Source: a virus (lineage: Duplodnaviria; Caudoviricetes). From it: a DNA stretch of 63,816 bases. Within the stretch, counting starts at the first letter, position 1, and every line of letters starts with the position of its first letter. The stretch spans positions 1 through 63,816 of the IMG/VR virus record IMGVR_UViG_3300032224_001028, one strand, 5' to 3'. The notes under the pieces were generated by a model, which was not told the DNA's origin, searched no databases, and saw only the letters and a program-made list of their open reading frames with translations. Shown here in pieces: positions 1 to 63,700 of this stretch. The position numbers and the translations under genes were made by a program.

Positions 1-123
1 GCGCATGTTGCTCGAAAGGGCAGTGGATCCATCCCAAGCCGGACTGCCTACCGACGTAGAGGTGCGATCCGCCAAGTTGCTTGTCGAAAAGCTGGCACGT
101 AGGGCCATGACTTCGGGCGACGA
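1..123. repeat. Terminal direct repeat (assembly overlap), copy 1; genome is circular or circularly permuted
   Basis: 1-123 is identical to 63694-63816 and lies inside a continuous reading frame. Confidence 0.97.
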
Positions 124-2857: not shown

Positions 2858-2898
2858 CTTGTCGGCGAAACAACAACAAGGTATAGGAGTAGATCTTT

Positions 2899-5001
2899 AT
2901 GGCAGAACAAATCGAACAATTCTTAGATAAAACGGACGAATCAATCAAAGTCGCTGGGGTAGATCCGGCTTCACCACTCTCAGGTCAGGCCCAAAAAGTG
3001 CCTTTCCCAACTGCTTATTCCTTGTCGGCAGAGCAGGAAGATCGTCTTGTAAATCATATCTTAACCCGCCTAACTGCTCTTGAGCAGGAGAGTGGTCGCA
3101 ACATCGTCCGAGGAACCGGATGGTATCGAACAAGTGAAGTAGCGAGAGGATCCGCCTCATTTATGGGACGTAGGGAACTATTCGAACTTATGTACCACAA
3201 TCAGGTTGATTGGCGTCCAGCTTCGCTAGGAGGGATCTTTGAGGACAGTAACTTGACCGTACCGATCACCCGCCGAATTGCCCGTCAGATGGTAGCTAGG
3301 GCAAACAACTACTTTTTTAGTACAGATCCGTGGTTCTCGGCCTATCCGCAGGGGGCAAGGGACGCTCAGAAAGCAGATGCAGTTGAGCATTATGTCCGTT
3401 GGAAGCTAGATAAGTCAGACACGGCAACGAAACTACAAATGGCCGTAGAATTAGCCTTTATGCGTGGTGAATGTATCGTAAAGACCACACACGCATCTAA
3501 AGAGCAGATTTATAGGACTTTGGCTAAGGTATTGGTAGATCCAATCGGTAAGGATATTTTGGCACAGGACGGTGATTACATCCTTGAGACGGATGCTTTT
3601 GATACAAAGACAATCTCAGATGAAGCCGGCAATCCGGTGGGCATGCAGACTGTATTACGTAGGGATGGCGTTACAGAAATGCCGGCAACACCGATCTATG
3701 AGGAAAAGATTATAACCCGTAAGGCTACTATTATGCGTGGGCCTGATGTGGGACTTGTTTATTTCAAGGACTTTATATGCCCACTCAATGCACCATCAGT
3801 GGATGAGGCAGACATTGTGGCGCATTTTTATGATGTTCCGGTGGCAACTTTATCAGATCTATACCAACGCAAGAACCTATTGGACATGTCCACAGAGCAA
3901 AGCGTACTAGCGACAAAGAGTGCTATTGAGCTTATCAGGTCGCTTGCCGGTGAATCCGGAACACCTAAAGCCGGTATTAGTCAGGCTAAGACTGAGCGTG
4001 GAGAGACAACCCAAGCCCCGAACACTGAGAATCCTCTAGTTGAGGTTGCCGAAGTTTATATGACTTATGACGCAGACGGAGACGGGATCCTTGAGGAAAT
4101 CATGGTTCTAGTTGATGTTAAGAATCGTCGAGCCTTGTTCTATGACTATACCGCAAACCTTACCCCTGATGGTAGGCGTCCATTTACAATTATCCGGTGC
4201 AATCCGGTGGACGGTCGTTGGTATGGGATCGGGTCAGTTGAAATGTTCGAGCCAAGCCAAAACTTTGTAGATTTGACGATCAACCGGATCTCTTTTGCAC
4301 AGGGAGGATCCGGACGTGTTACGTTCTGGCAACCAGACGCTACGCTTGAGGGCAGATCCAATCCGCACCTTGTTCTGAACAACGGTGGTACTTACACACT
4401 GGCACACGGCAAAACCCCTAAAGATGCCCTTGAGTACGTGGCCCTTCCAGAAGTTAAGAGCGAATACCTATTTAAGATGGTTGAGTTCTTTCTTCAGGTT
4501 GTGCAACTCGAATCAGGGGTAGTAAATGCCGGAGATCAGCAGTTTGCAGGACTTGAGCCGGCCAAGCTAGCCACTGGCATACGTAACATTGAGAAATCAG
4601 GTCAGGAAATGTTTGCCTTGTACCTATCCCACTTAGAGCAAGGGGTTCAGCTAGTCTTAGACCGCTTAGTTAAACTGATTTTCAGAAATATGGACTCCAA
4701 AGAGGTGTTCACTTATCTGGAAGGAGACAAGGCTCAAATCGGATCCATTACGCCGGAGGAGGTTGCTAACCTTGATATGGATGTTCGACTGCTTCTGACA
4801 CGGTATCGTGGCGAGCAGATCCTACAATCTTCCACCCAAGGGGCTAACTTAGTCCAGCAATTCTACGCATATCCGCCGGTGATTCAGCAGAAGGTAGCAA
4901 GCCTTTACATTCAAATGCTAAAAGCTCTTCAAATTGCTGATGCGGAGACGATCATAACCCCCTTAGATCCTTCTCAAGTGCAACAGAATCCAAATGGATA
5001 A
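2899..5001 (+). CDS. Portal protein
   Basis: 700 aa; DGDGILEE and RPF...PVDGRWYGIG motifs typical of podovirus portals; start of head module. Confidence 0.8.
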   Translation: MAEQIEQFLDKTDESIKVAGVDPASPLSGQAQKVPFPTAYSLSAEQEDRLVNHILTRLTALEQESGRNIVRGTGWYRTSEVARGSASFMGRRELFELMYHNQVDWRPASLGGIFEDSNLTVPITRRIARQMVARANNYFFSTDPWFSAYPQGARDAQKADAVEHYVRWKLDKSDTATKLQMAVELAFMRGECIVKTTHASKEQIYRTLAKVLVDPIGKDILAQDGDYILETDAFDTKTISDEAGNPVGMQTVLRRDGVTEMPATPIYEEKIITRKATIMRGPDVGLVYFKDFICPLNAPSVDEADIVAHFYDVPVATLSDLYQRKNLLDMSTEQSVLATKSAIELIRSLAGESGTPKAGISQAKTERGETTQAPNTENPLVEVAEVYMTYDADGDGILEEIMVLVDVKNRRALFYDYTANLTPDGRRPFTIIRCNPVDGRWYGIGSVEMFEPSQNFVDLTINRISFAQGGSGRVTFWQPDATLEGRSNPHLVLNNGGTYTLAHGKTPKDALEYVALPEVKSEYLFKMVEFFLQVVQLESGVVNAGDQQFAGLEPAKLATGIRNIEKSGQEMFALYLSHLEQGVQLVLDRLVKLIFRNMDSKEVFTYLEGDKAQIGSITPEEVANLDMDVRLLLTRYRGEQILQSSTQGANLVQQFYAYPPVIQQKVASLYIQMLKALQIADAETIITPLDPSQVQQNPNG

Positions 5002-5811: not shown

Positions 5812-5813
5812 TT

Positions 5814-7799: not shown

Positions 7800-7807
7800 G
7801 CCAAGCA

Positions 7808-8863
7808 GTGAGAACTTGCATAATTCTTCCGTGTACAGAGTTATACGCTTATGCAATAGAGGAGTGTGTTCGAGCAATATATATAGCCCTTAAAGGTAAG
7901 CATGCAGATTTGTATCTTTGCACAGATAAAACGGGTTCAGTAATATCGAAAATATCAACTATACCTAAAGTAGATAATGTAAAAATAACAGAGATCGCTA
8001 TCGACGTATCGGATTACGGAAACAAGGCATACAATCAAAAGGCACAAGTCATAATTGCGAGATTACTTGGGGCTGGGCTGGATATAGCAAAAGATAGGGA
8101 CTATGACTTTTGCTGGATAGTTGAATCGGACGTAATTGTTCACCCCGATGCGCTTGATTGTCTGATTTGGGCGCAAAACTATCCTTCATCCCCTAAATAC
8201 GATGTTACTGTCGCAACTTACTATAATGGTTCTTTCTTATGCGGTAGGGGTACTCCTTATAACCATATTTCCGAGGATTATCTTCCCAGCGAGAAGATTG
8301 GGGGTGTTGAATTATCCAAAAAAATTAAGATGTTGGCTAAAAAACTTAATGCCTATGCCTCAAAAAGAAAGAATCCGCCCAAGGACATGATTAAGGAGAT
8401 GGATGACTTGCAGAAAAAACTAAAGGAATCCCCGCCAAAAGCGAATGTCTTTGCCTTAAATGCTAAGAAATGGAGGAAACGTGGCTGGCTGGATCAGGCT
8501 TACGCCGGATCTGCCGTTCAGGGTGCAGTTCTGCCTACGGACTGGTGTGGTAATGGTTGTACTCTACTTTCTAGGAAGGCACTGATGCTAAGTAACTTTA
8601 TTGGGTATGCCGGCCATGGTACTCAAGATCTATTTCTTTGCTGGAACAAATGGTATCCGGCAGGAATTAAGATTGGATTAGTTGTAGGTGTCCCAGCCTA
8701 CCACGTTAAAAAAGATCCGCAGGGCAACTTATTTGCTTGGGAACCGTATTTTGTGCCTGATTGCGAAGAAACTTCCGGACATCTAAGGGTACGTCAGATC
8801 CCATTCATTAAGTATAACTCAATCCCTCAAGCGAATGAGCCTGTGCCTAAAGACGCCACTTAA
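7808..8863 (+). CDS. Glycosyltransferase, GT-A/GT2-like
   Basis: N-terminal CIILP strand, WIVESDV (DxD-like), CGNGCTLLSR and QDLFLC motifs. Confidence 0.65.
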   Translation: MRTCIILPCTELYAYAIEECVRAIYIALKGKHADLYLCTDKTGSVISKISTIPKVDNVKITEIAIDVSDYGNKAYNQKAQVIIARLLGAGLDIAKDRDYDFCWIVESDVIVHPDALDCLIWAQNYPSSPKYDVTVATYYNGSFLCGRGTPYNHISEDYLPSEKIGGVELSKKIKMLAKKLNAYASKRKNPPKDMIKEMDDLQKKLKESPPKANVFALNAKKWRKRGWLDQAYAGSAVQGAVLPTDWCGNGCTLLSRKALMLSNFIGYAGHGTQDLFLCWNKWYPAGIKIGLVVGVPAYHVKKDPQGNLFAWEPYFVPDCEETSGHLRVRQIPFIKYNSIPQANEPVPKDAT

Positions 8864-9272
8864 GGTTATCGAGGACGGCAGGGGCCGGCTCATGGAAATG
8901 CTCAGAAATGATGAACATGGATTCACGGGTTTTGGGCAAGTGTACATGACTACTTGCAATCCTAATATAGTGAAGGCGTGGCACTTCCATAAGAAGCAGA
9001 CGGATCAGTTTGTATGCGTGAGTGGGACTCTAAAGGTAGGTATCTACGACGAGAAAACAGGGATAACAGAGACTTACTACATAGGTGAAAATAGCCCATA
9101 CAGGATTACCATACCTCCTAATCTATGGCATGGATTTATGGCATGCGGGACGAAGGAAGCGGTCGTTATCAATACCGTGGATCAACCATTCAACTACGCC
9201 AATCCGGACGAGTACCGGAGGCCATTTGACGATAAAAACATACCTTACGAGTGGGCGATAAAATCTTTTTAA
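8835..9272 (+). CDS. rmlC: dTDP-4-dehydrorhamnose 3,5-epimerase-like cupin
   Basis: EDGRG, VKAWHFHKKQTD and IPPNLWHGF motifs. Confidence 0.85.
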   Translation: MSLCLKTPLKVIEDGRGRLMEMLRNDEHGFTGFGQVYMTTCNPNIVKAWHFHKKQTDQFVCVSGTLKVGIYDEKTGITETYYIGENSPYRITIPPNLWHGFMACGTKEAVVINTVDQPFNYANPDEYRRPFDDKNIPYEWAIKSF

Positions 9273-9315
9273 GATAGGTGTTGACAGGGCGACAACAACC
9301 TACATACTTCGATTT

Positions 9316-10329
9316 ATGGACGAAACGGAAGTGACTCCGGCGCAAGCCGAGCAACCTAACGCCACTACAACTAATTCAGGGGAGGCTCCAAAAGAGAATC
9401 CTGCTGAATCGTCGTTAAGCGTGGATGCACTTGATGCGGTTGGCTACGAAAAACTCCTAAAAGATTTAGACGTCTCCAAGGATGAAAAACCACCCGCCGA
9501 GGTAAAGGCTGAAGCAGAACAAGTAAAAGAAGAGACGGTTCCGGAGGAACCCCAAAAAGAAGAATCCACCAAGGTAGATGAGCCTGAAGATACCGAGGAT
9601 CCCAATAAGCTACCCGAACGGGTGCGAGTCGGAAACTGGTCAGAGGTAGAACGAAAGGCGATTGCTCTCAGGGCGAGAAACCCTGACATGTCACTTGACG
9701 AGGCACTTGCCAAAATCAAGGGAAATGAGCCTGAAAAGGCTGAAGAAACCAAGCAATCAGTACCTTCACTCGATGAAGTGGAGGCTCAGGTTGCAAAGGT
9801 TAAAGCAGATCGCAAACAGGCACTTAAGGACTTGGACTTCGAAAAATTGGGAGATCTGGACGAAACTCTTGACGGACTTAGGGAGAAACAGGCGCAACTT
9901 CGAGAATCCGCCAAGGAAGCAGAAGTTGAAGCCCGTGCAAGCTACCAAAGGTCAGTCGAGGATTCGAAGCGGAAAGCAGTCTCTTTTTATCCTGACACTA
10001 CCAACAAAGAATCTCAGTTGGTGCGCCGGATGGTGGAAATTGATAATGCTCTTAAAGAGCAGGATAACCCACTTTACTATTCCGCCGATAAGCCTTTCAA
10101 GATCGCTCAAATGGCCGGAAACGACTTGGGAATCGCTCCCAAGGATCCTAACCGGAAGGTTGAGAAGGTCGTCACCCCAGCCCCATCAAGTGCATCCCGC
10201 AAAGCGATACAAACCCCAATAGCGAGTGGAAACGCTCGCTCAAACGGGAGCAGTATCAAATCGTTGGAAACTGTACTCGACGGGATTAGTGACGAAGAAG
10301 CCTTCCGGTCTTTGATCGGCAAGATCTAA
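9316..10329 (+). CDS. Capsid scaffolding protein (putative)
   Basis: Acidic coiled-coil, 337 aa, directly upstream of the MCP; TTGACA promoter-like site at 9281. Confidence 0.65.
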   Translation: MDETEVTPAQAEQPNATTTNSGEAPKENPAESSLSVDALDAVGYEKLLKDLDVSKDEKPPAEVKAEAEQVKEETVPEEPQKEESTKVDEPEDTEDPNKLPERVRVGNWSEVERKAIALRARNPDMSLDEALAKIKGNEPEKAEETKQSVPSLDEVEAQVAKVKADRKQALKDLDFEKLGDLDETLDGLREKQAQLRESAKEAEVEARASYQRSVEDSKRKAVSFYPDTTNKESQLVRRMVEIDNALKEQDNPLYYSADKPFKIAQMAGNDLGIAPKDPNRKVEKVVTPAPSSASRKAIQTPIASGNARSNGSSIKSLETVLDGISDEEAFRSLIGKI

Positions 10330-10406: not shown

Positions 10407-11906
10407 ATGGCATCAGCATTTAACCTTAGCGTTCCTAATGTAAATCTAACGTCCGAGCTTAACGCTCAGACGACTAACAGTGATTTTCTCCCTAAACTTT
10501 GGAAGAAGGGTGTGCAGATTAGCGAGGCTCAGGAGGATTACTTCAATGATTTTGAAGGTGGTTCTCAGAACTCTCCTATTATGTCTGTCACCGATCTTGC
10601 CAAAGGCGCAGGGCAGAAAATCACCTTCCGGACAATGGCCCAGTTGTTCGGTGACGGTGTTCAGGGCGACGAGATCGTAGGATCGAACGTCGAAGAGTTC
10701 CGAGTTGGGAGCTATACGCTCTCGGTCGATTACCTCCGGCATGCGGTTTCCTACAACATCCGGACAGAAGATCAAACCGGTTTGATGACCGAACTCAAGT
10801 CCAGCATCCCCAACTTGTTGGGTAACTGGCTTGGACGGAAAAAAACCGAACGTCTCCTGAAAATGTTCATCCACAAAGGCAACGCTGAAAACACCGTTCG
10901 CCCTAACAACAAAGCTAACACAGACGCACTTCGTTCTGCTGATACTTTGACTATGGATGCAATTACAACCTTCGGACAGCAGATGAGAACCCGTGGCGCA
11001 AAACCCGCCATGGTCGGCAAAGTCGGTAAAAATACCGTTAATGCCTTCACGTTTGTATCTACTGGCGAAGGATTGTTGTCGCTGAGAAACTCAGCCGACT
11101 ACAAACAAGCTACCCGTGATGCGGGGATCCGTGGTGACGAGAACTACATCTTTAAGGGTGGGTTCGCAAACATCAACGGCCACGTAATCCGGTCTTATGA
11201 CCCGATTGATCACGACGGATGGGGGCCGGTTGGCTCTCCTCTGAATCCTAAGGCTTACTTGGGTGCTGATCTCACCACTGCTCCGACTGCTTCCTTCGGT
11301 TTGAAGGGTGGCGGATCGACTTCTGCTGGTGATAAGACTGGGCCTAAGTACTTCGAGTTCTTCTCGAATTACGCCTACAAATGGTCGCCGGATGATGCTC
11401 TAAGTGCTGGAAGTGACGCAAAATACGTCCTCATTTATAACCTTTCGGGTACAAATGCTGGAAAGTATTGCCTCTATTCCTACACGACGAACAACGGAAA
11501 CCAACTCACGATCACAGGCGCACTTAAGACTACCGCCGAGTCTGCCGGAACCTATCTGAAGGCAACTATCGGTTCGGTATCTGCTGACGCCTCGACTGGT
11601 GTGTGGGCGAATGCCAACATTAGCCGGCAACACCCCGTTGGATCCTTAATTGTTGAAACTAACAGTTATGGTGTTCCGATTGGTCGTACCGTGGTTCTCG
11701 GAGCTTCCTCGGCCCTTCGTGGCTACGGACGCTTCACGAACGAGCGTACCGAAGAAATGTTCGACGGTGATTTCATCCGCAAGGTGTATATCACTTCGAT
11801 CTTCGGTCAGACTCCGTTCCAACGTCCCGACGGGCGTTACCCGAACTATGCAGTCGTAGAACATGCGATTGCCTACGCCGGTCTGAACCTCCCAGTGATC
11901 AGCTAA
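10407..11906 (+). CDS. Major capsid protein, N4-gp56/DUF4043-like
   Basis: VTDLAKGAGQKITF...GDGVQGDEIVGSNVEEF signature; strong GGAGG RBS; terminator follows. Confidence 0.85.
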   Translation: MASAFNLSVPNVNLTSELNAQTTNSDFLPKLWKKGVQISEAQEDYFNDFEGGSQNSPIMSVTDLAKGAGQKITFRTMAQLFGDGVQGDEIVGSNVEEFRVGSYTLSVDYLRHAVSYNIRTEDQTGLMTELKSSIPNLLGNWLGRKKTERLLKMFIHKGNAENTVRPNNKANTDALRSADTLTMDAITTFGQQMRTRGAKPAMVGKVGKNTVNAFTFVSTGEGLLSLRNSADYKQATRDAGIRGDENYIFKGGFANINGHVIRSYDPIDHDGWGPVGSPLNPKAYLGADLTTAPTASFGLKGGGSTSAGDKTGPKYFEFFSNYAYKWSPDDALSAGSDAKYVLIYNLSGTNAGKYCLYSYTTNNGNQLTITGALKTTAESAGTYLKATIGSVSADASTGVWANANISRQHPVGSLIVETNSYGVPIGRTVVLGASSALRGYGRFTNERTEEMFDGDFIRKVYITSIFGQTPFQRPDGRYPNYAVVEHAIAYAGLNLPVIS

Positions 11907-11974: not shown

Positions 11975-12262
11975 ATGAAAGCAATTCTCTACATCTCAGG
12001 AGTTTCCCGCACAATTCACGGGCCTATTACCTATCTAAACGGGAAATCTCAAAGAGAGTACACATTTACTTGGTCTGAGGCTTATCAGAAGCACATCCTA
12101 AACGGTAAGGAGATTGGGATTGAGGATAATTCAATCATCCTAGATCTAGCGACCTCAGAGGAAATCACTTACCAGAAGGCAGTTGTCATGCTCTTGGACG
12201 AACCCAAGGAGGCCGTAGAAGAGGCTCCTAAGCGCAAGAAAGCAGTCAAAAATGACAGTTAA
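11975..12262 (+). CDS. Hypothetical protein
   Basis: 95-aa ORF following the MCP. Confidence 0.6.
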   Translation: MKAILYISGVSRTIHGPITYLNGKSQREYTFTWSEAYQKHILNGKEIGIEDNSIILDLATSEEITYQKAVVMLLDEPKEAVEEAPKRKKAVKNDS

Positions 12263-12938
12263 AACCGTTTTTGACGATCTTTGGGGCAACTGGGGATTCG
12301 AAGCTGAAACAAACGTAACGGCATTCCTGAGGGATCGTACCGTAAATACCCTTAATTCGGCCATGCAACTCATTTGGTCAAACGCCAAAGAGATGTCTTA
12401 TTTCGCCCGTGAAACTATTACCGTGACTGTAAATAGCTCAGGGGTTGCTACTTTAGACGATAACATACAAACAGTAATCGGGCCGGTTCGGGTGGCTTCA
12501 ACAAGCCAACCGCTTTTACAGATTTCCAGCAGGGGAGCATACGAACGTTTTGGACTTCTCTTTGGGGATTCTCCTACGATTTCATCTGGAATACCACAAT
12601 TCTACTTTCTTGAGGAGAATCGTCAGGCCTCGGCAGATTCGGTAAGACTGCGGATCCTGACCGTACCGGCCCCGACATCTACCGCAAGCATTTCAGTGGA
12701 CGTCATTAAACAGCCCACACGTTATTCCTATTCCGATTATGACTCACAAACCGTTATTGCAGTGCCACATAACTACGAGGCAATCCTGCTTCCGGTAGTC
12801 CGTAAGCTGGGTCTAGGTACTAGGTTCTTTGTAGATAAAGGGCGTGAATCGTTTGTTGAGCAGGACTACCAAAATGCTCTTGCCGTGCTTTCCGGAACGT
12901 CGCCGAGAGTTACGCCAAAGGAGGCAAAGGCAAAATGA
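12252..12938 (+). CDS. Head-tail adaptor / tail tubular protein A-like
   Basis: Position; helix-beta-helix layout with GIPQFY and LTVPAP motifs. Confidence 0.55.
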   Translation: MTVKTVFDDLWGNWGFEAETNVTAFLRDRTVNTLNSAMQLIWSNAKEMSYFARETITVTVNSSGVATLDDNIQTVIGPVRVASTSQPLLQISSRGAYERFGLLFGDSPTISSGIPQFYFLEENRQASADSVRLRILTVPAPTSTASISVDVIKQPTRYSYSDYDSQTVIAVPHNYEAILLPVVRKLGLGTRFFVDKGRESFVEQDYQNALAVLSGTSPRVTPKEAKAK

Positions 12939-29910: not shown

Positions 29911-30207
29911 ATGGATCTCCCTGCCGGAAACGGAAGAGGACGAATTTCTGCTCACGAAAAGAGAAGATTAGATCTAGCCCTGAGCCTCAGGGAACTTTCG
30001 ATTGCCTACGGATTAACCTATGCCCGTATCTGCAAACTCAGAGAATGCGCCGGCTTTCCGATTTTGGAAGGAGTAGTTGTGCCGTCTGATTTTGACCGTT
30101 GGCGAGAGGAGTACTACCGGCGTCCACGTACTTCCTTAGATCTCCCATCTCAAACCGATCATACATTCGGTGAACTATTTCAGAACTATGATTCACCAGA
30201 CGCATAG
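29911..30207 (+). CDS. Excisionase / AlpA-like HTH protein
   Basis: LSLRELSIAYGLTYARICKL...GFP...FDRW; convergent with and overlapping the integrase end. Confidence 0.55.
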   Translation: MDLPAGNGRGRISAHEKRRLDLALSLRELSIAYGLTYARICKLRECAGFPILEGVVVPSDFDRWREEYYRRPRTSLDLPSQTDHTFGELFQNYDSPDA

Positions 30208-31117
30208 CCGAGGCACGGGGTACTTCGGCCCTACGCATTCGGCTCACACGGGTAATACGCAGACTGTGGAATGTATGGTTCGGCATACCAATTCGGTCAA
30301 ACATCCGGCGAAACCGGTAGGACGCCTTGCGGGGCATCAAGCAAGTAACCTTTGCCCCGCTTTCTACGATATGGGTCAGGAGGGGGAGGATCGATGCGGG
30401 GATGGGGATAAGGAAGGCTTTCGTTTCCCCGCCCTTAGGGTTAGGGAAAGTGACTGTTCGCCTTTCCAGATCGATACAAGAGGTGGGAATGCAACACTCC
30501 CTTAGCCGGCATCCGGTCGCCAAGCTGATCTCAAAGGCTACGCCCATCCAAGAGGGCTTTTTCATAAGTGCCATTCGGCACTTTTGGATCTCCTCATCGG
30601 TTAGCTCCGGACGGATTCTCTTTGCCGATTGTTGGCATTTATAGTCGTCCATGGGGCGACCTTCCATTTTCCCCAAAAGGCGTCCCTGCCGTTGGATAAT
30701 CTTCAGGATCTTCAACTCCTGAATCATGGTATTCCGAGAAAGTTTTTTTCTCGAAAGATTTTTCTTTACGTCATGTCTCCAAAGTATAAACAAGTTTGCG
30801 TGAATTGGCCCAAACTCATCCAGCCTAATTTTTCTCAGAGTCATAAATTGATTAATGCTTCGCCACGCCGAGAGGTAACGCTCACAAGTTCCAGTCATGA
30901 TCGGCATGTTTTCAATCATCGGAACAACCCAGTCGGTGCTTTTATTTTGGGGAACGCTAACCTCGCCAACGGAAAGGGTGGACGCATAAACTTTGGCACG
31001 GGCCGTAGCCAGTGGATCGGCAACAAGGTAGCGAGTAGCCTTAGCAACCCAGCGGTTGCCCTGCTTAATTCTAACGTACCAGAACTTCGAACGCTTTCTC
31101 TTATAGATACTCGCCAT
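30038..31117 (-). CDS. int: Tyrosine recombinase (integrase)
   Basis: MASIYKR..SKFWY arm domain; TGCRLRE, K, HSLR and NHSS...MY catalytic set. Confidence 0.9.
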   Translation of the reverse strand: MASIYKRKRSKFWYVRIKQGNRWVAKATRYLVADPLATARAKVYASTLSVGEVSVPQNKSTDWVVPMIENMPIMTGTCERYLSAWRSINQFMTLRKIRLDEFGPIHANLFILWRHDVKKNLSRKKLSRNTMIQELKILKIIQRQGRLLGKMEGRPMDDYKCQQSAKRIRPELTDEEIQKCRMALMKKPSWMGVAFEISLATGCRLRECCIPTSCIDLERRTVTFPNPKGGETKAFLIPIPASILPLLTHIVESGAKVTCLMPRKASYRFRRMFDRIGMPNHTFHSLRITRVSRMRRAEVPRASAMRLVNHSSEIVHRMYDRFEMGDLRKYVDAGSTPLANGQNQTAQLLLPKSESRRIL

Positions 31118-31199
31118 GTAACAAGTGTCACACGCAAATCTAATCAAATCAAATCGATAAGTGGCGGATTAAGTCACTATCATACAAATCTTACCCTTG

Positions 31200-31640: not shown

Positions 31641-32363
31641 ATGAGCGACAAAGAAATTGCAGTAAAAAGCGAGAACACGATTCGGGAACTGATCGGATCC
31701 GACGAGTTCAAAAAGAAGATTTCCGATGCCCTGCCAAAGCACCTGACGCCGGAACGATTCGCACGGGTGGCACTGATGGCGATTAACAAGACGCCGGCCC
31801 TGCTGAATTGCACGAAGCCGAGCCTCTTTCAGTGCTTGGTAGATCTTGGGGCCATGGGCCTAGAACCGGATGGGCGACGGGCGCACCTGATCCCTTACGG
31901 CAACGTGGCTACTCTGGTGGTGGACTACAAAGGGATCCTTGACCTAATCATGCGCTCGGGCCACGTCCTATCGATCCATGCCGACGTAGTTTGCGAGGGT
32001 GACGTTTTTGAATACGACCTTGGGGAAATCAAACAGCACAAGATCGATTTCCGGAAGGATCGTGGGGCCGTAATTGCGGTCTATTGCATGATCCGCATGA
32101 AGGACGGATCAAACAAGTGTGAAGTCATGACAAAGGCCGACGTCGAATCGATCCGGTCACGTTCCAAGGCCGGTAAGTCTGGCCCTTGGGTTACGGACTG
32201 GAATGAGATGGCAAAAAAGACGGTATTCCGACGGGCATCCAAGTGGGTTCCCTTGTCGCCCGAAGTGCGGGATCAGATCGAACGTGAGGACGTCCATCAG
32301 TTTGCCGGTAAAGCGTCGAGCATACCGGTTGTTGCAACACCCATCTTTGAGGAAGCAAAATGA
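31641..32363 (+). CDS. recT: RecT single-strand annealing protein
   Basis: ALPKHLTPERF, GLEPDG..AHLIPY, DYKG and PWVTDWNEMAKKTV motifs. Confidence 0.92.
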   Translation: MSDKEIAVKSENTIRELIGSDEFKKKISDALPKHLTPERFARVALMAINKTPALLNCTKPSLFQCLVDLGAMGLEPDGRRAHLIPYGNVATLVVDYKGILDLIMRSGHVLSIHADVVCEGDVFEYDLGEIKQHKIDFRKDRGAVIAVYCMIRMKDGSNKCEVMTKADVESIRSRSKAGKSGPWVTDWNEMAKKTVFRRASKWVPLSPEVRDQIEREDVHQFAGKASSIPVVATPIFEEAK

Positions 32364-33415
32364 GCGACGAACGCAAAGGATTACCCAGCGCAAGCAACGC
32401 CAAACGCTTCCTGAACTGTGCCGGATCCTTTCGGGCAGAGTCCGGCTTTCCGGATACGTCCAATCCTGCATCAGAAGCCGGTACTAGGATCCATGACGTG
32501 CTAGCCGGCGAAGCACCTTGGACGAGCTTGAATGACGCTGAACGTGACATGGCCGAGACGCTGAACACGGAATCGGATTTGGTTCTGGCTAACTGGGAAT
32601 CTGAGAAGCCTCTGGTAGCTAGGGAAAAGCGGTTGTTCCTTGTGGAACAAGGCAAAGAACTAGCCTCCGGCAAGGGGGATTTGATGGCAATCTCCGCATG
32701 CGGTAAGCGGGGAATAATTATCGATTACAAGACGGGCAGGGGCGAAGTCGATAAAGCCGGAAAGAATCTTCAACTCCGATTCTTGGCCGTACTCATGGCG
32801 CAGGAGCATCCCAACCTTGAGGAAATTACCGTAGGCATCATCCAGATCGGCGCACCTACAACCCTGTGCGCTTATTCCAAAAGTGATATACGCCTATCCC
32901 GTGAGAACATTCTTACCGGACTTAAGGCACTGGATCAGGACAATGCCCCCCGCAAGAGTGGGACATGGTGCAAGTACTGTAAGGCAATCGGGGTATGCGA
33001 GACGGCCATGGGCGAAAGCATGCAAATCGTCCCTGCGGAGTCGAAGTTCGAGTTGGGCATGCCCTTTGAGGAATTGCTCATTAGGGCCGAAATCGTTGAG
33101 CAGATCATAGAAAGTATTAAGGAGAAGGCTAAGACGCTTCTAAAAGCCAATCCTGAAGCAATAAAGGGCTATAAATTGAGTTCTCCGATTCAACGTCGGG
33201 CGATTAAGAGTCCTGAGACTGCCTTTACCAAGCTATCGACCATCCTTAACGGATCCGAGTTTGCTTCATGTTGCTCAGTAAAGGTGGGCGATTTGCAGAA
33301 GTTGTTGGCAAAAAAACAACAACTCGGTGTGAAAGACTCAAAAGAGGCATTGTCGAATCTGTTAGGTGACGAACTAGAGGTGATTGAATCCGAACCGAGG
33401 TTGATGAAAAAATGA
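32360..33415 (+). CDS. DUF2800 / Cas4-like PD-(D/E)XK exonuclease
   Basis: SAS...C.GS, GTRIH, GKGD, IIDYKTG, QL and WCKYC...C motifs. Confidence 0.8.
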   Translation: MSDERKGLPSASNAKRFLNCAGSFRAESGFPDTSNPASEAGTRIHDVLAGEAPWTSLNDAERDMAETLNTESDLVLANWESEKPLVAREKRLFLVEQGKELASGKGDLMAISACGKRGIIIDYKTGRGEVDKAGKNLQLRFLAVLMAQEHPNLEEITVGIIQIGAPTTLCAYSKSDIRLSRENILTGLKALDQDNAPRKSGTWCKYCKAIGVCETAMGESMQIVPAESKFELGMPFEELLIRAEIVEQIIESIKEKAKTLLKANPEAIKGYKLSSPIQRRAIKSPETAFTKLSTILNGSEFASCCSVKVGDLQKLLAKKQQLGVKDSKEALSNLLGDELEVIESEPRLMKK

Positions 33416-33597
33416 AGATTAACAAAATGAAAACTAAGGCAATCAAAGAGATGATTGCCCGACTGGAAACTATGATCTCCGGCAACTTTACCAAGGAGCA
33501 GGACAAAAAGAATTGGACTCAGTTGCCAAAGGGCAGGGAAACCGGAAGTCAGTATTTCAAGCATCTCCGTGAAGAGCTTGGCCGGAGGAATGCTTGA
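33412..33597 (+). CDS. Hypothetical protein
   Basis: Coupled ORF. Confidence 0.45.
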   Translation: MKINKMKTKAIKEMIARLETMISGNFTKEQDKKNWTQLPKGRETGSQYFKHLREELGRRNA

Positions 33598-34148
33598 GTA
33601 TTTACCGAGATCCACTCAAGGAGTCCGGTGACGAATGCCGTCCGGACAACCAGAGGCTTGAGCAGATCATAGCAGGATCCTTGCTATGCCTTATGCCACT
33701 GCCTAACCGGTCGTGGCTGGACATAGGGGCCGGACAAGCAAAGGCCGAGCAACGCATCACTGGGTTTGGCTTTACCTACATGAGCCAAGATCCGGCCCCG
33801 AATCAACCAGTGGACGTGACGATACCTTTCCACACGATCCGGACACATAAGTTCGGAGTGGTAAGCGCATTCCACGTAATCGAACACGTTCCTTGCTACG
33901 TCAATTTTCTAAAAGACATGAAAGGATTGGTTGAGGCCGGCGGGTATGCGGTTGTTTCGACGCCACTCAGAGTTCAAACGGAATACCATTATAGGGCATT
34001 CGCCAAGGGATCCCACGTACTCAATAGCCTAATCGCTTTGGGCAACCTGATTGCCTCGTTTGACATTCATGAAGATCGGTTTGTGAGAACAGATGCCATG
34101 GCCGGTATCACCGATCCGAAATCAATTTTAAGTATATGGAAACCATAA
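33594..34148 (+). CDS. Class I SAM-dependent methyltransferase
   Basis: WLDIGAG, FHVIEHV and GGYAVVSTP motifs. Confidence 0.75.
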   Translation: MSIYRDPLKESGDECRPDNQRLEQIIAGSLLCLMPLPNRSWLDIGAGQAKAEQRITGFGFTYMSQDPAPNQPVDVTIPFHTIRTHKFGVVSAFHVIEHVPCYVNFLKDMKGLVEAGGYAVVSTPLRVQTEYHYRAFAKGSHVLNSLIALGNLIASFDIHEDRFVRTDAMAGITDPKSILSIWKP

Positions 34149-39982: not shown

Positions 39983-40495
39983 ATGAGTCTGTATCAGGCA
40001 TTCAATCGTAGCGTGGAGCAGGGCAGGACAGCGGAGCGCAGTAACGTGGTAAATCTTGAATTGGCTAGAGACGAAGCAATCATGGCAAGGATCAAGTTGG
40101 TGGAACGGGGGCTAGAGGCTATTACCGTTTTATCGCACCGGATCGCCGGCATGGAGGCTAGGATTGCAAGCATGACGGTAAATACTGCCGGAAGCTGGGG
40201 CGATAATTATATCAAAAATCTCAGTGCAGGAGTTAATGCGGATCCGGTTGAGAAAGTCGAGGGGCCAAAATTTGATATTCCGGAAGATCTTAACTTTGAT
40301 AGAAGCAACTACACTAAAAAGCCGGCAAACAAAACACCGGATAAAGTTGCTCGGAGATGGGCTATATGGAAGGCACAGCATGAATCCGGCATGCGGATCC
40401 TTCAGATTGCAAAGATGTGGGGTTGCGATCACGGATCAATCCTCTATGCCCGTTCGAAAAACTGGAAAGCAAGTACCGGATGGCATAAGCGATGA
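39983..40495 (+). CDS. Coiled-coil protein with C-terminal HTH
   Basis: GMRILQIAKMWGCDHGSILY. Confidence 0.6.
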   Translation: MSLYQAFNRSVEQGRTAERSNVVNLELARDEAIMARIKLVERGLEAITVLSHRIAGMEARIASMTVNTAGSWGDNYIKNLSAGVNADPVEKVEGPKFDIPEDLNFDRSNYTKKPANKTPDKVARRWAIWKAQHESGMRILQIAKMWGCDHGSILYARSKNWKASTGWHKR

Positions 40496-40953
40496 GGCCG
40501 TTGTATGAAACACAAGAGGATCTTTCACGGGAAAGGGAAGTTGGCGAAGCGATTGCCGAAAAGTGGAAGGTCGGTATCGAAAAGTTGCCGATCAAGTACA
40601 TCGTCGATTACGGGCTTACCCGTAACGAAAGGGTTGTTGCGTGGGCCGAGATTCGTTGCCGTTCGAAAGTATGGGAATGTCCTTTTATCTCAGCGCAAAA
40701 GTATTGGTCAGGGATCGATCTTTCAAAAAAGTCAGGACTCCCGTTCTTCCTCATATTCTCTTTTCCAAAACTTGTCTGCTACCGAAAGATCGAGGAAGGG
40801 GAGTTTCCGGACATTGTGTTTGGGGGAAGAGGTCAGATTCGGGACTGGCAGGATCGTGAGCCAATGGTGGTCATGGACATTCAGAGCTTTACTAAGGTGG
40901 ATGTTGTTGTTAATCTGACAACAACATGGAGCGAACATTTACATCAAGTCTAA
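40492..40953 (+). CDS. PD-(D/E)XK nuclease-like protein
   Basis: VDY......VAWAEIRCR. Confidence 0.55.
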   Translation: MRPLYETQEDLSREREVGEAIAEKWKVGIEKLPIKYIVDYGLTRNERVVAWAEIRCRSKVWECPFISAQKYWSGIDLSKKSGLPFFLIFSFPKLVCYRKIEEGEFPDIVFGGRGQIRDWQDREPMVVMDIQSFTKVDVVVNLTTTWSEHLHQV

Positions 40954-40962: not shown

Positions 40963-41364
40963 TTGAAGGCGAAAGGTCAATCTTCTATTTCTGGCCGAAA
41001 GACAAACCGAAAACGCACAAAAAAAAGCTACATCGCCGAAAATTGCGTAAAGCTGATCGAGGCGGTCGTCGCCGAGGCGATTCACGATTACCGTCATCTA
41101 AGGGCCGGAGGAATCGTCGATAAACTTAAGAAGGTTGGATCCCTAAGAAAATACGGGTTCAGTAAAGACAGCAAAGTAACGACGATGCGCCACGACGGGG
41201 AGGTGGTGGATCTCTTGAACTTCCTCAAGTCTCCTGACCTAGATCTACTGCTCAGGATGTGCCATTCGCCTATTGACGGATCCACGCTACGCAAAAGGTT
41301 GGATAAGCCTTACAATTCAGCATCCGCAAGGAACAGGGGGGCAGACGGGGCTTTCTATATATGA
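40963..41364 (+). CDS. Hypothetical protein
   Basis: LIEAVVAEAIHDY. Confidence 0.5.
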   Translation: MKAKGQSSISGRKTNRKRTKKSYIAENCVKLIEAVVAEAIHDYRHLRAGGIVDKLKKVGSLRKYGFSKDSKVTTMRHDGEVVDLLNFLKSPDLDLLLRMCHSPIDGSTLRKRLDKPYNSASARNRGADGAFYI

Positions 41365-42095
41365 TCTTTTCCCCAAGGATCCGGTTTCTTTGCGAGGAAC
41401 GTTTCAAAGGGGTTATCCCTGAGCCTTATCCAGCGAGTCAGTTTCTTCCGGATTGGTATAAGAAACTTCCGCACCGGATAGGCAATCAGGGGTTAAGCAA
41501 AGGAACAGTAAAGAGGTGCGCCCCATTCCTAGATTCTCTTTCCGCCGGCTTCATCATTCCTTTGGCCGGTGACGTCGAACTTGTCTCAACCGAGAAGGGA
41601 TCGATTGTCGCAACGGATAGTTCTTTCCCGACGAAAATCATAGGGATGCACCAACCTTGGCAGTTAGGTGGCGAGGCTCATCCATCCCATCCGGCCCAAC
41701 CGCTTAAGTTCTCAAACTTCTGGCATATCCATGTTCCCGCCGGTTGGTCGGTATTGTTCGTGCCTCCCCTAAATAGGGCAGATCCTAGATTTGAGTGTTT
41801 TTCGGCAATCGTTGAATGCGACAAGTTTAAGAATCAGATTAACTTCCCGTTCGTCCTTAAGGATCCCAAGTTTTCCGGAATCATCGAGCAGGGAACACCG
41901 TTGGTTCAGGCTATTCCCTTTAAGCGGTCGGAGATGGGCGGGAGACATTCTTGCGGAACGCTGAGTAAGAAGGATCTGGCTGAGATCAATAAAACAAAAC
42001 TCAAGATGGATGCTCACGAATCGTATTACAGGGATCGGGTTTGGAAAAAGGACGGCAAGAGTCGATGCCCGTTTCATAGGATACTCGGCTTATGA
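41361..42095 (+). CDS. Conserved phage protein (DUF6065-like)
   Basis: PDWYKK, CAPFLD...GFIIP, NFPF and GTPLVQAIPFKR motifs. Confidence 0.6.
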   Translation: MIFSPRIRFLCEERFKGVIPEPYPASQFLPDWYKKLPHRIGNQGLSKGTVKRCAPFLDSLSAGFIIPLAGDVELVSTEKGSIVATDSSFPTKIIGMHQPWQLGGEAHPSHPAQPLKFSNFWHIHVPAGWSVLFVPPLNRADPRFECFSAIVECDKFKNQINFPFVLKDPKFSGIIEQGTPLVQAIPFKRSEMGGRHSCGTLSKKDLAEINKTKLKMDAHESYYRDRVWKKDGKSRCPFHRILGL

Positions 42096-43825
42096 GTCTG
42101 GATTCAGTAATCGAAACGAGTCCTGCTCTCTGGATGGCAACATCCGGAATCATTAAAAACAAGGCCGGCAATCTAGTTAGGCCCAAGCCGAATGATTTTC
42201 AGAAGTTCGTTTCGGAAGTGATTGAGTGGTGTATCGAAAATAACGAGCGTCCTAGAATAGTCATCCTTAAGCCTCGCCAAAAGGGATCCTCAACGGTTTC
42301 GTGCGCTTGCGTCTATACGTTCTTGCGTCGCTTCTCCGGAGCTAGGTGCGCCTTGATCGGGGATGAGTTGGATACGTCAAACAATCTTGCGGAAATCTTC
42401 AGCCGGTATGCAGACATGGACGATCACGCATGGGGCAACGAATGGCATAAGACTAAGTTGGCATTCTCAAACGATTCAAGTTGTCACAAGGAAACGGCAA
42501 ACGATCCACGGGCCGGCATGTCGTCCACCTTTCAAGTCGTCTTGGCGTCCGAGGTGGCACACTGGAAGAAGCGGGGAGAACGGAATGCCGAAAGCGTACT
42601 TCTTTCGATCCTGAATTGCGTACCCGATGAGCCGAAAACCCTAGTTATTGTTGAATCTACCCCGAACGGTGCGTCCGGTGCGTTTTATGAGAGGTGGCAA
42701 AAGGCAGTATGGTTTGAGGATTTCAAAAAAGGAAAGAAGGGGAACGGTTTCATCCGTGTCTTTTGGCCTTGGTATTCATTTGCGGATTCTGTCGAGACGT
42801 TGCCGGCTCAGAAAGAAGAGGAAATTAAGGAATCCCTCACGGATTCTGAGAGGAATCTGATGGGTTTGGGTGCGACGATACCGAATCTTGCATGGCGTCG
42901 CCGGATCGTGGGTGAGAAATGCGGTGGAGATGCCGAGCTTTTTAATCAGGAATACCCCACCGACGACGTTTCATGCTTCTTAACGTCTGGCCGGCCAAGG
43001 TTTGACCGGTCAGGGGTTGAAAGGATCGAGGTTCTTACCAGAAAGAAGCAGAGAACAGAGGGTGTTCTGGATCCTTCCGGTAATTCGGTTGTGTTCCGGC
43101 CTACCGGATCCGCCGAAGCGTGGCTATGGCTATGGGAAAAGCCTGAGTACGGTCGCCGGTATTTGATTGGTGTCGATACCATGACAGGGGCGAGTCAGGT
43201 AGCAGGATCCACAAGGGAGCCGGACTGTCATTCAGTGATAGTTTTGGCATCCGGAGCTTTCGTATTAGGCAAATGGATCCCGCCTTCCGTAGTTGGGAGG
43301 TTAAAACCACCTTGCAGGGTGGATATTGACGTTCTGGCCCTATTTGTGGACAGGCTTTCAAGGTTCTTTGGTGGTTGCATGGTCGTTCCAGAGGTAAATA
43401 ACTCCGGATTGGCCCTAATCGAACTACTTAAGGATGCTCAAACGCCGATTTACCAACGTGAAATCTTCAATTTACGTGAATCCAAGAAGGCGAAGGCACT
43501 TGGATGGCAAACAACCGAAAAGACAAGGACGCTAGCAATAGAAACACTAGCCACGGCAATCAGAGACGGGGATCTGGATGGTGGCGGAATCAATATCTAT
43601 TGCCCAAACATCCTTTCCGAACTTAAGACATTCGTAATTACGGACTCCGGCAAGGCCGAGGCGATGAGTGGGAATCACGACGACGATGTTTTGGCTTTAT
43701 CAATCGCAATAGCGACAATCGATGGCGCAACTCCCTATCTTGCACCGTCATCAACAAGAGGACTACCGAGAGATCTGCTCAACGCAGAGAAATCCATTCA
43801 GGCAAACCGCAGAAGCTATGCTTGA
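42092..43825 (+). CDS. terL: Terminase large subunit
   Basis: ILKPRQKGSST, LASEVA, VESTPNG, IGVD and HDDDV motifs. Confidence 0.92.
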   Translation: MSLDSVIETSPALWMATSGIIKNKAGNLVRPKPNDFQKFVSEVIEWCIENNERPRIVILKPRQKGSSTVSCACVYTFLRRFSGARCALIGDELDTSNNLAEIFSRYADMDDHAWGNEWHKTKLAFSNDSSCHKETANDPRAGMSSTFQVVLASEVAHWKKRGERNAESVLLSILNCVPDEPKTLVIVESTPNGASGAFYERWQKAVWFEDFKKGKKGNGFIRVFWPWYSFADSVETLPAQKEEEIKESLTDSERNLMGLGATIPNLAWRRRIVGEKCGGDAELFNQEYPTDDVSCFLTSGRPRFDRSGVERIEVLTRKKQRTEGVLDPSGNSVVFRPTGSAEAWLWLWEKPEYGRRYLIGVDTMTGASQVAGSTREPDCHSVIVLASGAFVLGKWIPPSVVGRLKPPCRVDIDVLALFVDRLSRFFGGCMVVPEVNNSGLALIELLKDAQTPIYQREIFNLRESKKAKALGWQTTEKTRTLAIETLATAIRDGDLDGGGINIYCPNILSELKTFVITDSGKAEAMSGNHDDDVLALSIAIATIDGATPYLAPSSTRGLPRDLLNAEKSIQANRRSYA

Positions 43826-60700: not shown

Positions 60701-63700
60701 ATCAAAGAGAAGCTGATCAAAAAGGGAGTAAAGCCTGAAGAGATTGCAATTATTAACGATTTCAAGACCGATCAAGCAAAAGAGCAGTTATTCGAGAGGG
60801 TGAACAACGGAACTGTTCGTATCATTATCGGATCGACACAAAAGCTGGGAACTGGCGTGAATATGCAAGGCCGGATGATTGCCGGACATAACTTGGACGT
60901 GCCTTGGACTCCGGCAGAGATGGAGCAACGGGACGGGCGGGTAATCCGTCAGGGCAACATTCACTCAGAGCTTGGCATACCGGTCGAGATCTACCGGTAC
61001 GGTATGAAGGATACGTTGGATTCGGCCCTTTGGCAGAAGCTAGAGTTTAAGGAAAGATTCATTAAACAGGCATTGAGTGGCAAGATTAGCGGTCGTGTCA
61101 TTGAGGATGATTCGGGGCTACTCAGCCTAGCAGAGCAAAAGGCGATCTTGTCCGGCCCGATGGGGCTTGAGAAGTTTAACACCGAGACAAAGATCCGTGA
61201 GCTAGAAAATCAGGAACGGGCATGGGTGCAATCATCGTTCGATGCGATTCAGGCCGGCAAGACTGCCGAGCTTCAGGTTAAGGCATACGAAAACAGGCTT
61301 AACCAGACAAGGGAGTTCCTAAGCGAAGTATCAAACTGGACGCCTGAGCCTACGGCCATGATTGAAGGCGTAGCATTAACGAAAGAAAACGACATCCGTG
61401 ACGCTATTCAGGAGTACTTTGATAAGCGCAGAGATCAGGCCATCCAAACCGGAAAATCGTTCCGAGCATCAGTAGAAGCAAAGAAGCCTTTGGGAGAATT
61501 TACATACAATGGAACAAAAATAACTCTTTCGCCAGCTTCAGTAGATGAAGTGCTAGGTGAACCGGATCCCAAGAAAGCCATTAAGGTAGAAACCGGCGTC
61601 ATGGTCAATGGCCGTGACTTGGGTGCAAAGGTAAAGAGCGCAGGATACGTCGTGAGCGCATTAAGGGATCTCGTTAAGAACCTTAAGAGTTATGAGCAAC
61701 AGTTTATCAACGGCATGGGATCGGCCCAAGAAACGGCAGATTCAGCGACAATCGCATCCTCCAAGGCATTCCCAAGGAAGGAAGAGCTAGATGGTCTTAG
61801 AGCTAAATACGCTAAGATCATGGAGGATTACACGGACAAGGGTAAGACAAATAGGGTTGAAGCAGAGCAAATGCAGTTAAACGCTCCCGCCCTTACGCCA
61901 AGCAAGGCAAGCCTACTCTCCAAAGATGCTATGAACCTGATCGAGCCTATTGCTAGGTCGTTCGTTTCCCCGCAGACATCGCTAGACGAGGCTATTCAGA
62001 TTGGCCGGATCGCACTCATCAAAGCAGTGCAGGGATTCGATCCGAATGCCGGTGATTTTGATAAATACGCAAAGGCAGTAGTTCGGAACGCACTTAAAAA
62101 GAACTACTCAAGGAACGAGGCGTCGGCCCGTGAGATCTCCATGAGATCCATGAACATTGACTCTCCGGTGTCCGGAGAAAGCACGGCCCCGCTGGGTAGC
62201 ATCATTCCGGACGAAAACCAGAGCTTGCCGTCGCAGTCGGCGATTACAAACGACGCACAGAGGCTCATGCAAACCATGATTGACGGACTACCGGTGCGCC
62301 CACGGACGGTTGTATCGGCATACATGAACGGGGAAGGGGTTGCCCAAATCGCAGAAAAGATGGGCATTTCCCGCCAATACGCTTTGACGATGCTCAACAA
62401 TGCTCTCTCAGTACTCCGGAAAAGGTTGGCAAAGGTCGGGATCGAGGAAACCAAGGATCTCATCTCCGGATCCACACGGGAGATTATATCCAGACTGAAC
62501 GCACCGTTAAGAGCAATCACAACGGAAGAGGAGAAGGCTCAGGCCGAGTATCTCACCGAATTGGCCCAAAGCAGAGGATTGACGTTGGATCAGTTTGCCA
62601 CGGAAAGAATCGATGAGTTCCTAGATAGCGCAAAGGCATGGAGACAGGCGCATCCTATTCAAGATGATGACATGCAAGTACTTGGGGCTTCAAATAGGCG
62701 CATCAAATCAAAGTTCCTCACGCCAGTCAGCAAGAGATATGAGGCAGAACAGTTTGAACTAGCATTCGTTAAATCAATGGTAGAGGTGGCAGACAAAGAC
62801 CAAGCCGGAAAGCAGGACATGTCAGAAGAAGGCAAAGCATATCTAATCGATGTCCTTGCCGAGTATCTAGCGTCGAAAACGTCTTTGGATGAAGTGGCAA
62901 AGGGGCAGATCCAGACAGATAAAAGCTTAGATAAATACCCCGATCTCAAGTGGTCTTTTCAGAAGTTTGGTAAAATTGCAGATAAAAACTCTGCGTTTTA
63001 TGATCTCAGTCAGGAGAACAACAAGAAAATATGGGAAGCATATAAACTGCTTGAACAGAACGAAAATAACTCAGTAATCGCATTCGAAAACGACCAAGGC
63101 GACAAACTTCTAGTATCTAAAGCAATAATCAATCCTGAAGATAATGTCGGAATAAATGACTACAACTATAAAGAAGTTCCACTCACAGATTTCAGAAACA
63201 CCGCATACCGACTTACAAAATACACAAGCAGTTTTGGAATACTCGGTGCAATTACAAACCCAACGACAGTAATTACCCCCGAAGGAGACAGCATTACACC
63301 GGCTTGGCATTCATTCTTTCCAAATAAAACTCAGGCAGTGATGAGTGCGATGGGCATAAAGAACCCGCAAAGGGAGACGTACGACGATTACAAGCCTATG
63401 GAATCCTTATTCTCTCCCAGTCGGAATCCAGACATGGATGCAGTTGAGGAGTACATGGACTATCTAGGTAAAGAGTTGCCTGAAACGAATGAGCTAATCA
63501 ACAAGGCAGATAACGAACGTAACAGATTCAAAATCACAGGAAACCCAACGCTAGCCAACCCCGCTAAGGGCATGGGGCGCAACCTAGTGAATGCAGTGGA
63601 TGAGGCTCGAAAAGACATACTGCAACGCCGGCCAGACGTTATCGTGATGGCCGAGGCCCGTGCGCTACTCGCAAATGACGAGGAAGGCGTAAAGCGCATG

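Follow-up and report, generated by a model that had tools for sequence, protein, structure and literature searches.

Absence of four short words and of the dipeptides Ala-Ala and Pro-Gly from a tailed-phage genome

The genome and its missing words

The window analysed here is the whole 63,816-nucleotide stretch of the IMG/VR virus record IMGVR_UViG_3300032224_001028 (Duplodnaviria; Caudoviricetes). The record is complete, with 63,693 bp of unique sequence and a 123-bp end repeat, and its GC content is 47.5%. The + strand holds nearly all of the long genes, which include virion and packaging genes and a giant open reading frame (ORF) of 5,919 codons (Table 1). The coding strand has a purine excess over the whole window (A 19,155 versus T 14,338; G 16,235 versus C 14,088). 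No tRNA genes were found in the window. The subject of this study is the complete absence from this genome of the words GCNGC, CCNGG, GGWCC, and CGCG, and the accompanying absence from its proteins of the dipeptides Ala-Ala and Pro-Gly.

A full count gave zero copies of each of the four words in 63,816 bases. Other tetramers are plentiful in the window, such as GATC (441), CCGG (407), and GGCC (247). Nine of the 512 canonical pentamers are absent, and each of the nine contains one of the four core words. As the null model, we used 200 within-gene shuffles of synonymous codons, which preserve the proteins and the codon usage of each gene. The expectations were 76.5 ± 7.4 for GCNGC (minimum 57), 129.3 ± 10.5 for CCNGG (minimum 88), 75.1 ± 7.4 for GGWCC (minimum 56), and 104.0 ± 8.8 for CGCG (minimum 83), against an observed count of zero in every case. 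This null already embeds the missing Ala-Ala and Pro-Gly; therefore, codon pairs in the two remaining frames are subject to the purge as well.

Among the 73 ORF calls used for the dipeptide counts (20,450 residues), Ala-Ala occurs 0 times against 131.7 expected from composition, and Pro-Gly 0 times against 69.1. Alanine is the most abundant residue (8.04%). Both dipeptides are also at zero in each of the six frames, which follows from the genetic code: Ala-Ala can only be spelled GCN-GCN, and Pro-Gly only CCN-GGN. Gly-Pro is halved (32 against 69.1 expected), as expected if CCN can follow only GGC and GGG. A preliminary description of this DNA had suggested that the proteome apparently contains no Ala-Ala or Pro-Gly, that GCNGC and CCNGG are avoided, and that GGWCC and CGCG look scarce. 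These claims stand on the full count, with zeros against about 77, 129, 75, and 104 expected copies of the four words, respectively. However, the scope of the avoidance had been understated, because about fifty words are lost, including 27 of the 64 hexamer palindromes.

The loss is confined to exact words. Half-matching words are kept, with GCNGG at 339 copies and CCNGC at 239, whereas the palindromic forms GCNGC and CCNGG are at 0. Likewise, GGSCC occurs 127 times and GGWCC not at all. The retention of GCNGG and CCNGC rules out a type IV-like avoidance of SCNGS. The observed/expected ratio of CpG is 0.99; therefore, the loss of CGCG is not a general CpG depletion. This ratio, together with the enriched palindromes described below, also rules out a general avoidance of CpG or of palindromes.

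The purge extends well beyond the four core words. Twenty-seven of the 64 hexamer palindromes are absent and nine more are present once, while 60 codon shuffles gave a mean of 0.17 absent hexamer palindromes and a maximum of 1. Six of the 27 contain CGCG or CCNGG, and therefore 21 are independent of the core words. The counts of hexamer palindromes are two-peaked, with about 39 at 0–3 copies and the others at or over expectation. A/T-only words (TTTAAA, AATATT, and AAATTT) are among those lost. The degenerate palindromes GRGCYC (33 expected), GTMKAC (33), and RGGNCCY (59) are completely gone. Others are nearly gone, namely GGYRCC (2 copies, 41 expected), GDGCHC (2, 72), RGCGCY (1, 40), CYCGRG (1, 33), CTRYAG (1, 42), and GTYRAC (2, 45). 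The loss also covers interrupted palindromes with defined spacers. GACN3GTC (11 expected), GCCN5GGC (16), GCTNAGC (11), and CCAN9TGG, CCAN5TGG, and CCTN5AGG (about 16 each) have no copies, and GATN4ATC has 4 (28 expected).

Several non-palindromic words behave in the same way. GGTCTC (22 expected), CACGAG (15), CAGCTC (19), CCCAGA (29), and GCAGGC (30) are absent, and GAAGAC is present once (38 expected). GCCCGC (0), CTGGAG (2), and CCGCTC (2) are also depleted, with expectations within 15–38. Once words containing the four core motifs had been set aside, 2,015 canonical hexamers and 503 pentamers remained, of which 73 and 34, respectively, were depleted relative to a dinucleotide model (Bonferroni 0.01). 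Among asymmetric split words of the type I-like form (3+3 bases, spacers of 1–9), none was significant after correction except symmetric or core-containing ones, and the power for longer words was low. Nearly all of the lost words are what we take to be recognition sequences of characterised type II enzymes, the cognates presumably including Fnu4HI, ScrFI, AvaII, FnuDII, BanII, AccI, BglI, XcmI, PflMI, EcoNI, Tth111I, and BsaI.

AATT is partly depleted, with 187 copies against 286 in the shuffles, and TAATTA is kept (13). The deficit is strongest in AAATT/AATTT (66 versus 259, both strands) and GAATT/AATTC (80 versus 219). This deficit may be a softer or context-dependent avoidance.

Another group of palindromes is enriched. 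GGATCC occurs 79 times against 27 in the codon shuffles, and TCCGGA (74) and GCCGGC (53) are likewise in excess, as are GATC (441 versus 323) and CCGG (407 versus 275) themselves. The enrichment of GATC- and CCGG-centred palindromes is 1.3–3 fold; it is found in all three frames and genome-wide, with no broader consensus around the words. The complete relative G042 shows the same enrichment. A shuffle in which every absent hexamer was barred gave 33 ± 4, 38 ± 4, and 30 ± 4 copies of GGATCC, TCCGGA, and GCCGGC, respectively, against the 79, 74, and 53 observed; the bans thus explain the excess only partly. Soft avoidance of neighbours such as GACCC (23 versus 116) may contribute to the enrichment; of the 62 Asp-Pro pairs, for example, 57 use GAT-CCN.

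Relatives and protein-level changes

The purge is shared by the close relatives of the window. Other IMG/VR records supplied ten loci of this clade (110,639 bp, 89–97% capsid identity), in which GCNGC, CCNGG, and GGWCC are at 0 and CGCG occurs once. Five further loci, found via the integrase, lack all four words, even in segments and inserts that do not align to the window. The complete genome G042 (64,634 bp) also has none of the four, and 27 hexamer palindromes are absent from it as well.

G042 allows the persistence of the losses to be followed base by base. Its alignment to the window spans 53,438 bases and contains 5,361 substitutions (90.0% identity). A core word would be created by 5.2% of the possible single substitutions in the window. 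Random placement of substitutions of the same spectrum gave 279 expected forbidden sites (205 when the 3,432 synonymous changes are taken by themselves), and the number observed is 0 in both genomes. Ninety-two of the differences between the two genomes would each create a site if made alone in the window sequence, and in G042 each of these is paired with a second change in the same word. Selection against the sites is current, and the losses have been held through 10% divergence.

The wider family provides natural controls. An alignment-based scan gave 61 loci, mostly of 58–68-kb phages, with 36–97% capsid identity. A capsid tree was built from 58 rows, each with at least 430 aligned residues, by a quick IQ-TREE run with SH-aLRT support. 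Every complete word loss maps to one well-supported clade of this tree. The window clade comprises 8 rows (support 100). CCGG is at 0 in a clade of 16 rows (support 99; L009, L023–L034, L047, L048, and L065), CCWGG in a clade of 5 (support 100; L038, L040–L042, and L044), and GCWGC in a group of 3 (support 98; L016, L017, and L046). A high-GC clade of 8 rows (support 100) is poor in GTAC; the loci L049 and L054–L061 have 0–4 copies. The remaining clades show no complete loss.

The six complete genomes differ in the same manner. Three hexamer palindromes are absent from G045, six from G044, 19 from G043, and 24 from G046. G043 additionally has 0 copies of CCGG, 2 of GCWGC, and 13 of ACNGT. The absent set of G046 largely differs from that of the window; AACGTT, ACATGT, ACCGGT, AGTACT, CTTAAG, GCATGC, TACGTA, and TTCGAA are all at 0 in G046 and occur 8–28 times each in the window. 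Clade-specific loss sets of this kind would be expected if the clades were exposed to different restriction repertoires.

At the protein level, four distant complete relatives contain 75–118 Ala-Ala and 19–49 Pro-Gly in ORFs of at least 150 aa, against 0 and 0 in the window and G042. The alanine content is 8.0–8.2% in the latter two and 8.0–9.2% in the distant relatives. The window ORFs were searched by tblastn against all loci outside the window clade, with just the best segment retained, and 18 of the 73 ORFs were matched. A majority position was defined as a dipeptide present in at least half of five or more relatives. There are 26 such positions for Ala-Ala and 2 for Pro-Gly, and the window retains none of the 28, whereas it retains 642 of 1,780 other majority dipeptides (36%). 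The corresponding figure, 0.64^28 ≈ 4e-6, is to be read with the reservation that the positions are not phylogenetically independent and that 13 of them rest on just 5–10 relatives.

The replacements can be seen at conserved positions of virion proteins. At portal residues 503–504 (nt 4405–4410), the window has His-Gly, whereas Pro-Gly is found in 33 of 36 distant relatives. In the head-region protein encoded by 9316..10329, residues 267–268 (nt 10114–10119, GCCGGA) are Ala-Gly, and Ala-Ala stands there in 49 of 51 distant relatives. All seven majority Ala-Ala positions of the capsid protein are substituted (AQ, QA, DA, AG, GI, AG, and SA), including residues 435–436, which are SA in the window and AA in 37 of 50 relatives. 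The commonest swaps are from AA to AG, SA, DA, or QA and from PG to HG, AG, QG, or PN, although these counts are pseudo-replicated across relatives.

The cupin, which belongs to the RmlC/WbuC-like sugar isomerase family, was compared with 119 homologues from many phyla (46–55% identity). Residues 43–44 (nt 8961–8966, CCTAAT) are PN, where 108 of the 119 homologues have PG in a PGVVKAWH context. The preliminary description had pointed to another site in this protein, where IPPN would stand for the usual IPPG. The window indeed has PN there (residues 95–96; nt 9117–9122, CCTAAT), but only 40 of the 119 homologues have PG at this site, and 62 have Gly; residues 43–44 are thus the stronger case. 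In the nearest solved homologue, 3ejk, the two sites read PQ and PR. Because PG is missing from 3ejk as well, the IPPN site is a variable one. In RecT there is almost no effect on the protein; one position is AA in 48 of the 119 homologues, and AA is lacking altogether from 23 of the 119.

Restriction as the probable selective agent

We propose, with a probability of about 0.85, that this lineage has been selected, and still is, to be free of targets for numerous and diverse type II restriction endonucleases encountered in its host population. The selective agent would thus be restriction enzymes, and many of them. Restriction-site avoidance that reaches the protein level had already been put forward from a first view of the sequence, and it is supported by the specificity of the losses, the exact spacers, the clade-specific sets, the persistence among relatives, and the replaced Ala-Ala and Pro-Gly. 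An enzyme cannot cut a genome that lacks its site, whatever the methylation state of the DNA. Most sites would have been removed through the choice of synonymous codons and codon pairs. Every coding of Ala-Ala spells GCNGC and every coding of Pro-Gly spells CCNGG; therefore, removal of these sites would have required amino-acid replacements, and the proteome would now evolve without the two dipeptides. Fnu4HI-like and ScrFI-like enzymes are suggested by the words themselves.

Protection by methylation was considered separately. Six-frame searches of the window, each run with positive control genomes, and Pfam and NCBIfam scans of its ORFs revealed no DNA methylase of the C5, N4/N6, or Dam type. 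As no DNA methylase was detected, self-methylation is not the protection. A trade-off between avoidance and methylase carriage is also unsupported, because the low-avoidance relatives G044 and G045 are likewise without methylases.

Several points weigh against the proposed restriction-driven purge. Methylase carriage does not explain the difference between clades, as G044 and G045 illustrate. Avoidance alone does not explain the enriched GATC- and CCGG-centred palindromes. The searches described below yielded no host, and with it no cognate restriction-modification system for any avoided word. To our knowledge, about fifty specificities exceed what any single strain carries; therefore, a large and shifting restriction repertoire of the host population, or a broad host range, must be assumed. 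The phage carries an integrase, while site elimination is, as a trend and no strict rule, notably rarer in temperate phages according to a survey by Rusinov et al. (2018, PMC6286503). The same survey reports avoidance mainly of orthodox type II sites and none of type I and IIG sites, and some of the lost non-palindromic words here may be of type IIG.

The same loss of methylase target words would arise if the sites were avoided to escape marking by host methylases and subsequent cutting by type IV nucleases of the next host, and such a scheme would suit a phage that moves between differing methylomes. However, the type IV enzymes that are known recognise loosely defined contexts (S5mCNGS in the case of SauUSI), and here only the palindromic forms are lost while GCNGG and CCNGC are kept. 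About fifty precise words, including A/T-only and exactly spaced ones, are more simply accounted for by direct cutting, and no test favours escape from marking over it. We therefore regard this scheme as unlikely. The pressure could also come from within, if nucleases of the phage or its lysogen without a matching methylase forced the loss of its own sites. The window does encode two PD-(D/E)XK nucleases and no DNA methylase. Nevertheless, one of the two adjoins RecT, as the usual recombination exonuclease does, two nucleases cannot cover about fifty unrelated words, and clades with other purge sets share the gene layout of the window. These facts make self-avoidance very improbable.

Many of the lost hexamers double as common cloning sites, and some long-read methods have motif-linked consensus errors. 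Both facts could be cited for an account with no defence selection at all, in which mutation bias, structural avoidance of palindromes, or an artefact of assembly, sequencing, or design produced the pattern. This account deserves hardly any credence. The same purge is found in the ten and five loci and the complete genome described above, which come from other records with about 90–97% identity. The CpG ratio of 0.99 and the 2–3 fold enrichment of some palindromes do not fit a general bias. The amino-acid swaps are varied and follow no single systematic miscall, and the ORFs are intact, including the one of 5,919 aa.

Selection by restriction enzymes has well-known precedents, and the GATC-free Staphylococcus phage K is a classical example. 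As in the restriction-site avoidance of dsDNA phages described in PMC6286503 and PMC8410138, the pattern is a word-specific loss of type II-like sites under a codon-preserving null, and related phages differ in the words that they have lost. The present case differs in its breadth, with four words of 4–5 bases and about 45 longer ones, non-palindromic words included. It also differs in mechanism. The 2021 review describes site removal as synonymous change that leaves coding sequences intact (PMC8410138), whereas here synonymous change cannot remove two of the words, and the proteome has lost two dipeptides. In the survey, GCNGC is usually over-represented in phages, with 22.5% of genomes below expectation (PMC6286503); here it is at 0 in an integrase-bearing phage. 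We found no description in the full-text literature, supplementary files aside, of a dipeptide made impossible by restriction-site avoidance. The window thus presents an extreme case of a known strategy against restriction, one that reaches the proteins, and its family provides unusually clean natural controls.

If restriction is indeed the agent, defence pressure can override protein conservation and reach beyond codon choice, so that one of the most frequent dipeptides and a widespread turn motif are excluded from the whole proteome. Sister clades have erased different words, which would make the cost and the routes of rewriting measurable. The list of erased words would predict the restriction repertoire or methylome of the host population, and it could be matched to methylation motifs in long-read metagenomes for host assignment. 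Should the phenomenon be general, viral protein evolution would be under a measurable influence of restriction enzymes, and the purge profiles of uncultured phages could serve as fingerprints of host restriction repertoires. A more far-reaching version is possible but, taken as a whole, doubtful. In it, host defence shrank the protein space of the lineage to 398 of 400 dipeptides, conserved Pro-Gly and Ala-Ala were rewritten in both enzymes and virion proteins, and the state was kept through at least 10% divergence despite the integrase; the enriched GATC- and CCGG-centred words may then be "safe" through methylases common to all hosts, or functional.

The giant ORF and other genes

The features of the window are collected in Table 1. 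The giant ORF runs from 48791 to 2857 across the end of the record, is intact over its 5,919 codons, and ends 42 bases before the portal gene. The 123 identical bases at positions 1–123 and 63694–63816 fall inside it. Because the giant ORF reads through this "direct terminal repeat", the repeat is best taken as the point where a circular or circularly permuted assembly closes, and it probably does not represent physical ends.

Table 1. Features of the window, with coordinates, strand, and supporting evidence or remarks
Feature	Coordinates	Strand	Evidence or remark
Giant ORF, C-terminal 951 codons	2..2857	+	the "950-aa segment" of the preliminary description
SU10-type portal	2899..5001	+	profile scan
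Cupin (RmlC/WbuC-like sugar isomerase family)	8835..9272	+	Pfam and NCBIfam matches
Head-region protein, no known family	9316..10329	+	the scaffold of the preliminary description
Major capsid protein, N4/Phage_capsid_3-type	10407..11906	+	
SU10-type adaptor	12252-12938		
Tyrosine recombinase (phage integrase family)	30038..31147	-	Pfam PF00589, 37.0 bits versus cut-off 27.1
PD-(D/E)XK nuclease	32360-33415		
Methyltransf_23 ORF	33594-34148		target not assigned
PD-(D/E)XK nuclease	40492-40953		
phrog_7084 ORF	41361-42095		E 3.7e-53; function not assigned
Terminase	42092-43825		
Giant ORF, first 5,008 codons	48791..63816	+	continues across the end repeat into 1-2857
HTH_3 regulator, RecT with PD-(D/E)XK exonuclease, replication initiator, DnaC-like loader			profile scans

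Three regions of the giant protein could be assigned. A DdrB-like ParB domain lies at aa 1606–1711, and a helicase at aa ~3489–4055 has matches to ResIII, SNF2-rel_dom, and Helicase_C. Downstream of the helicase, nt 61937–62428 encode a sigma-70 domain of the ECF type, which matched TIGR02937 at 61.1 bits (cut-off 42.9) as well as Sigma70_r2 and r4_2 of Pfam. An injected sigma factor could redirect the host RNA polymerase to early phage genes. The search for an adenine methylase in the giant ORF gave only a sub-threshold match to Eco57I (15.2 bits against a cut-off of 25.3, E 0.024), and the catalytic motif (D/N/S)PP(Y/F/W/H) is missing from the whole sequence of 5,919 aa.

The preliminary description had also seen a DarB-like anti-restriction module in this genome. 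The SNF2/ResIII helicase and the DdrB-like ParB domain agree with such a module, but the methylase half of the DarB pair was undetected. At 5,919 aa, the product is far longer than P1 DarB, which has about 2,255 aa. In Iyer et al. (2017, PMC5512222), the polyvalent-protein archetype DarB is a methylase-helicase pair directed against type I restriction. Like the Dar system of phage P1 and the polyvalent proteins described there, the window has a very large multidomain ORF beside the virion genes, and it shares with them the combination of a DdrB-like ParB and a SWI2/SNF2-type helicase. Unlike in P1 DarB, no adenine methylase domain (EcoKI/TaqI-like) or motif was found in the window ORF. Unlike the polyvalent proteins of that paper, it embeds an ECF sigma-70; the word "sigma" is absent from its text (PMC5512222). 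To judge from its sequence, the giant ORF fits the polyvalent proteins, in which several unrelated effector domains stand in one polypeptide beside the virion genes. The giant, putatively injected protein may cover other defences, such as type I or III systems, whose sites would not be expected to be avoidable.

The position of the phage among known phages and hosts was examined by similarity searches. A megablast search with 12 kb of the window against the phage collection gave no match. Cultured phages have 22–30% identity in the capsid, portal, and terminase. When these three proteins and ORF 41361-42095 were used in tblastn searches, only remote matches (22–42%) were obtained, all to phages of unrelated hosts (phages of Erwinia, Rhizobium, Vibrio, Bacteroides, and haloarchaea, and cyanophages). 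A scan of genome contigs gave one 3-kb contig of an unclassified metagenome-assembled genome with 52% capsid identity. Homologues of RecT and the cupin are named from many phyla, and an Atlas look-up for RecT gave viral clusters only.

On account of its integrase gene, this uncultured, podovirus-like phage is possibly temperate. No integrated copy or host flank was found; integrase scans of viral and metagenome contigs gave 2 + 3 loci, all collinear with the phage. A sequence search revealed no solved relative of the integrase. In relatives of 92–97% identity (L067–L071), unaligned inserts of about 440–890 bp lie between window positions 29304 and 29309, downstream of the 3′ end of the integrase gene, and the relatives are patchy over 25.6–29 kb. 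This region and the insert point form a variable accessory region.

ORF 41361-42095 has an unusually wide spread. Over 94–96% of its length, its product shares 38–42% identity with proteins encoded by tailed viruses of haloarchaea (HF1, HF2, HRTV, and HCTV), and it also matches Synechococcus phage and cyanophage records.

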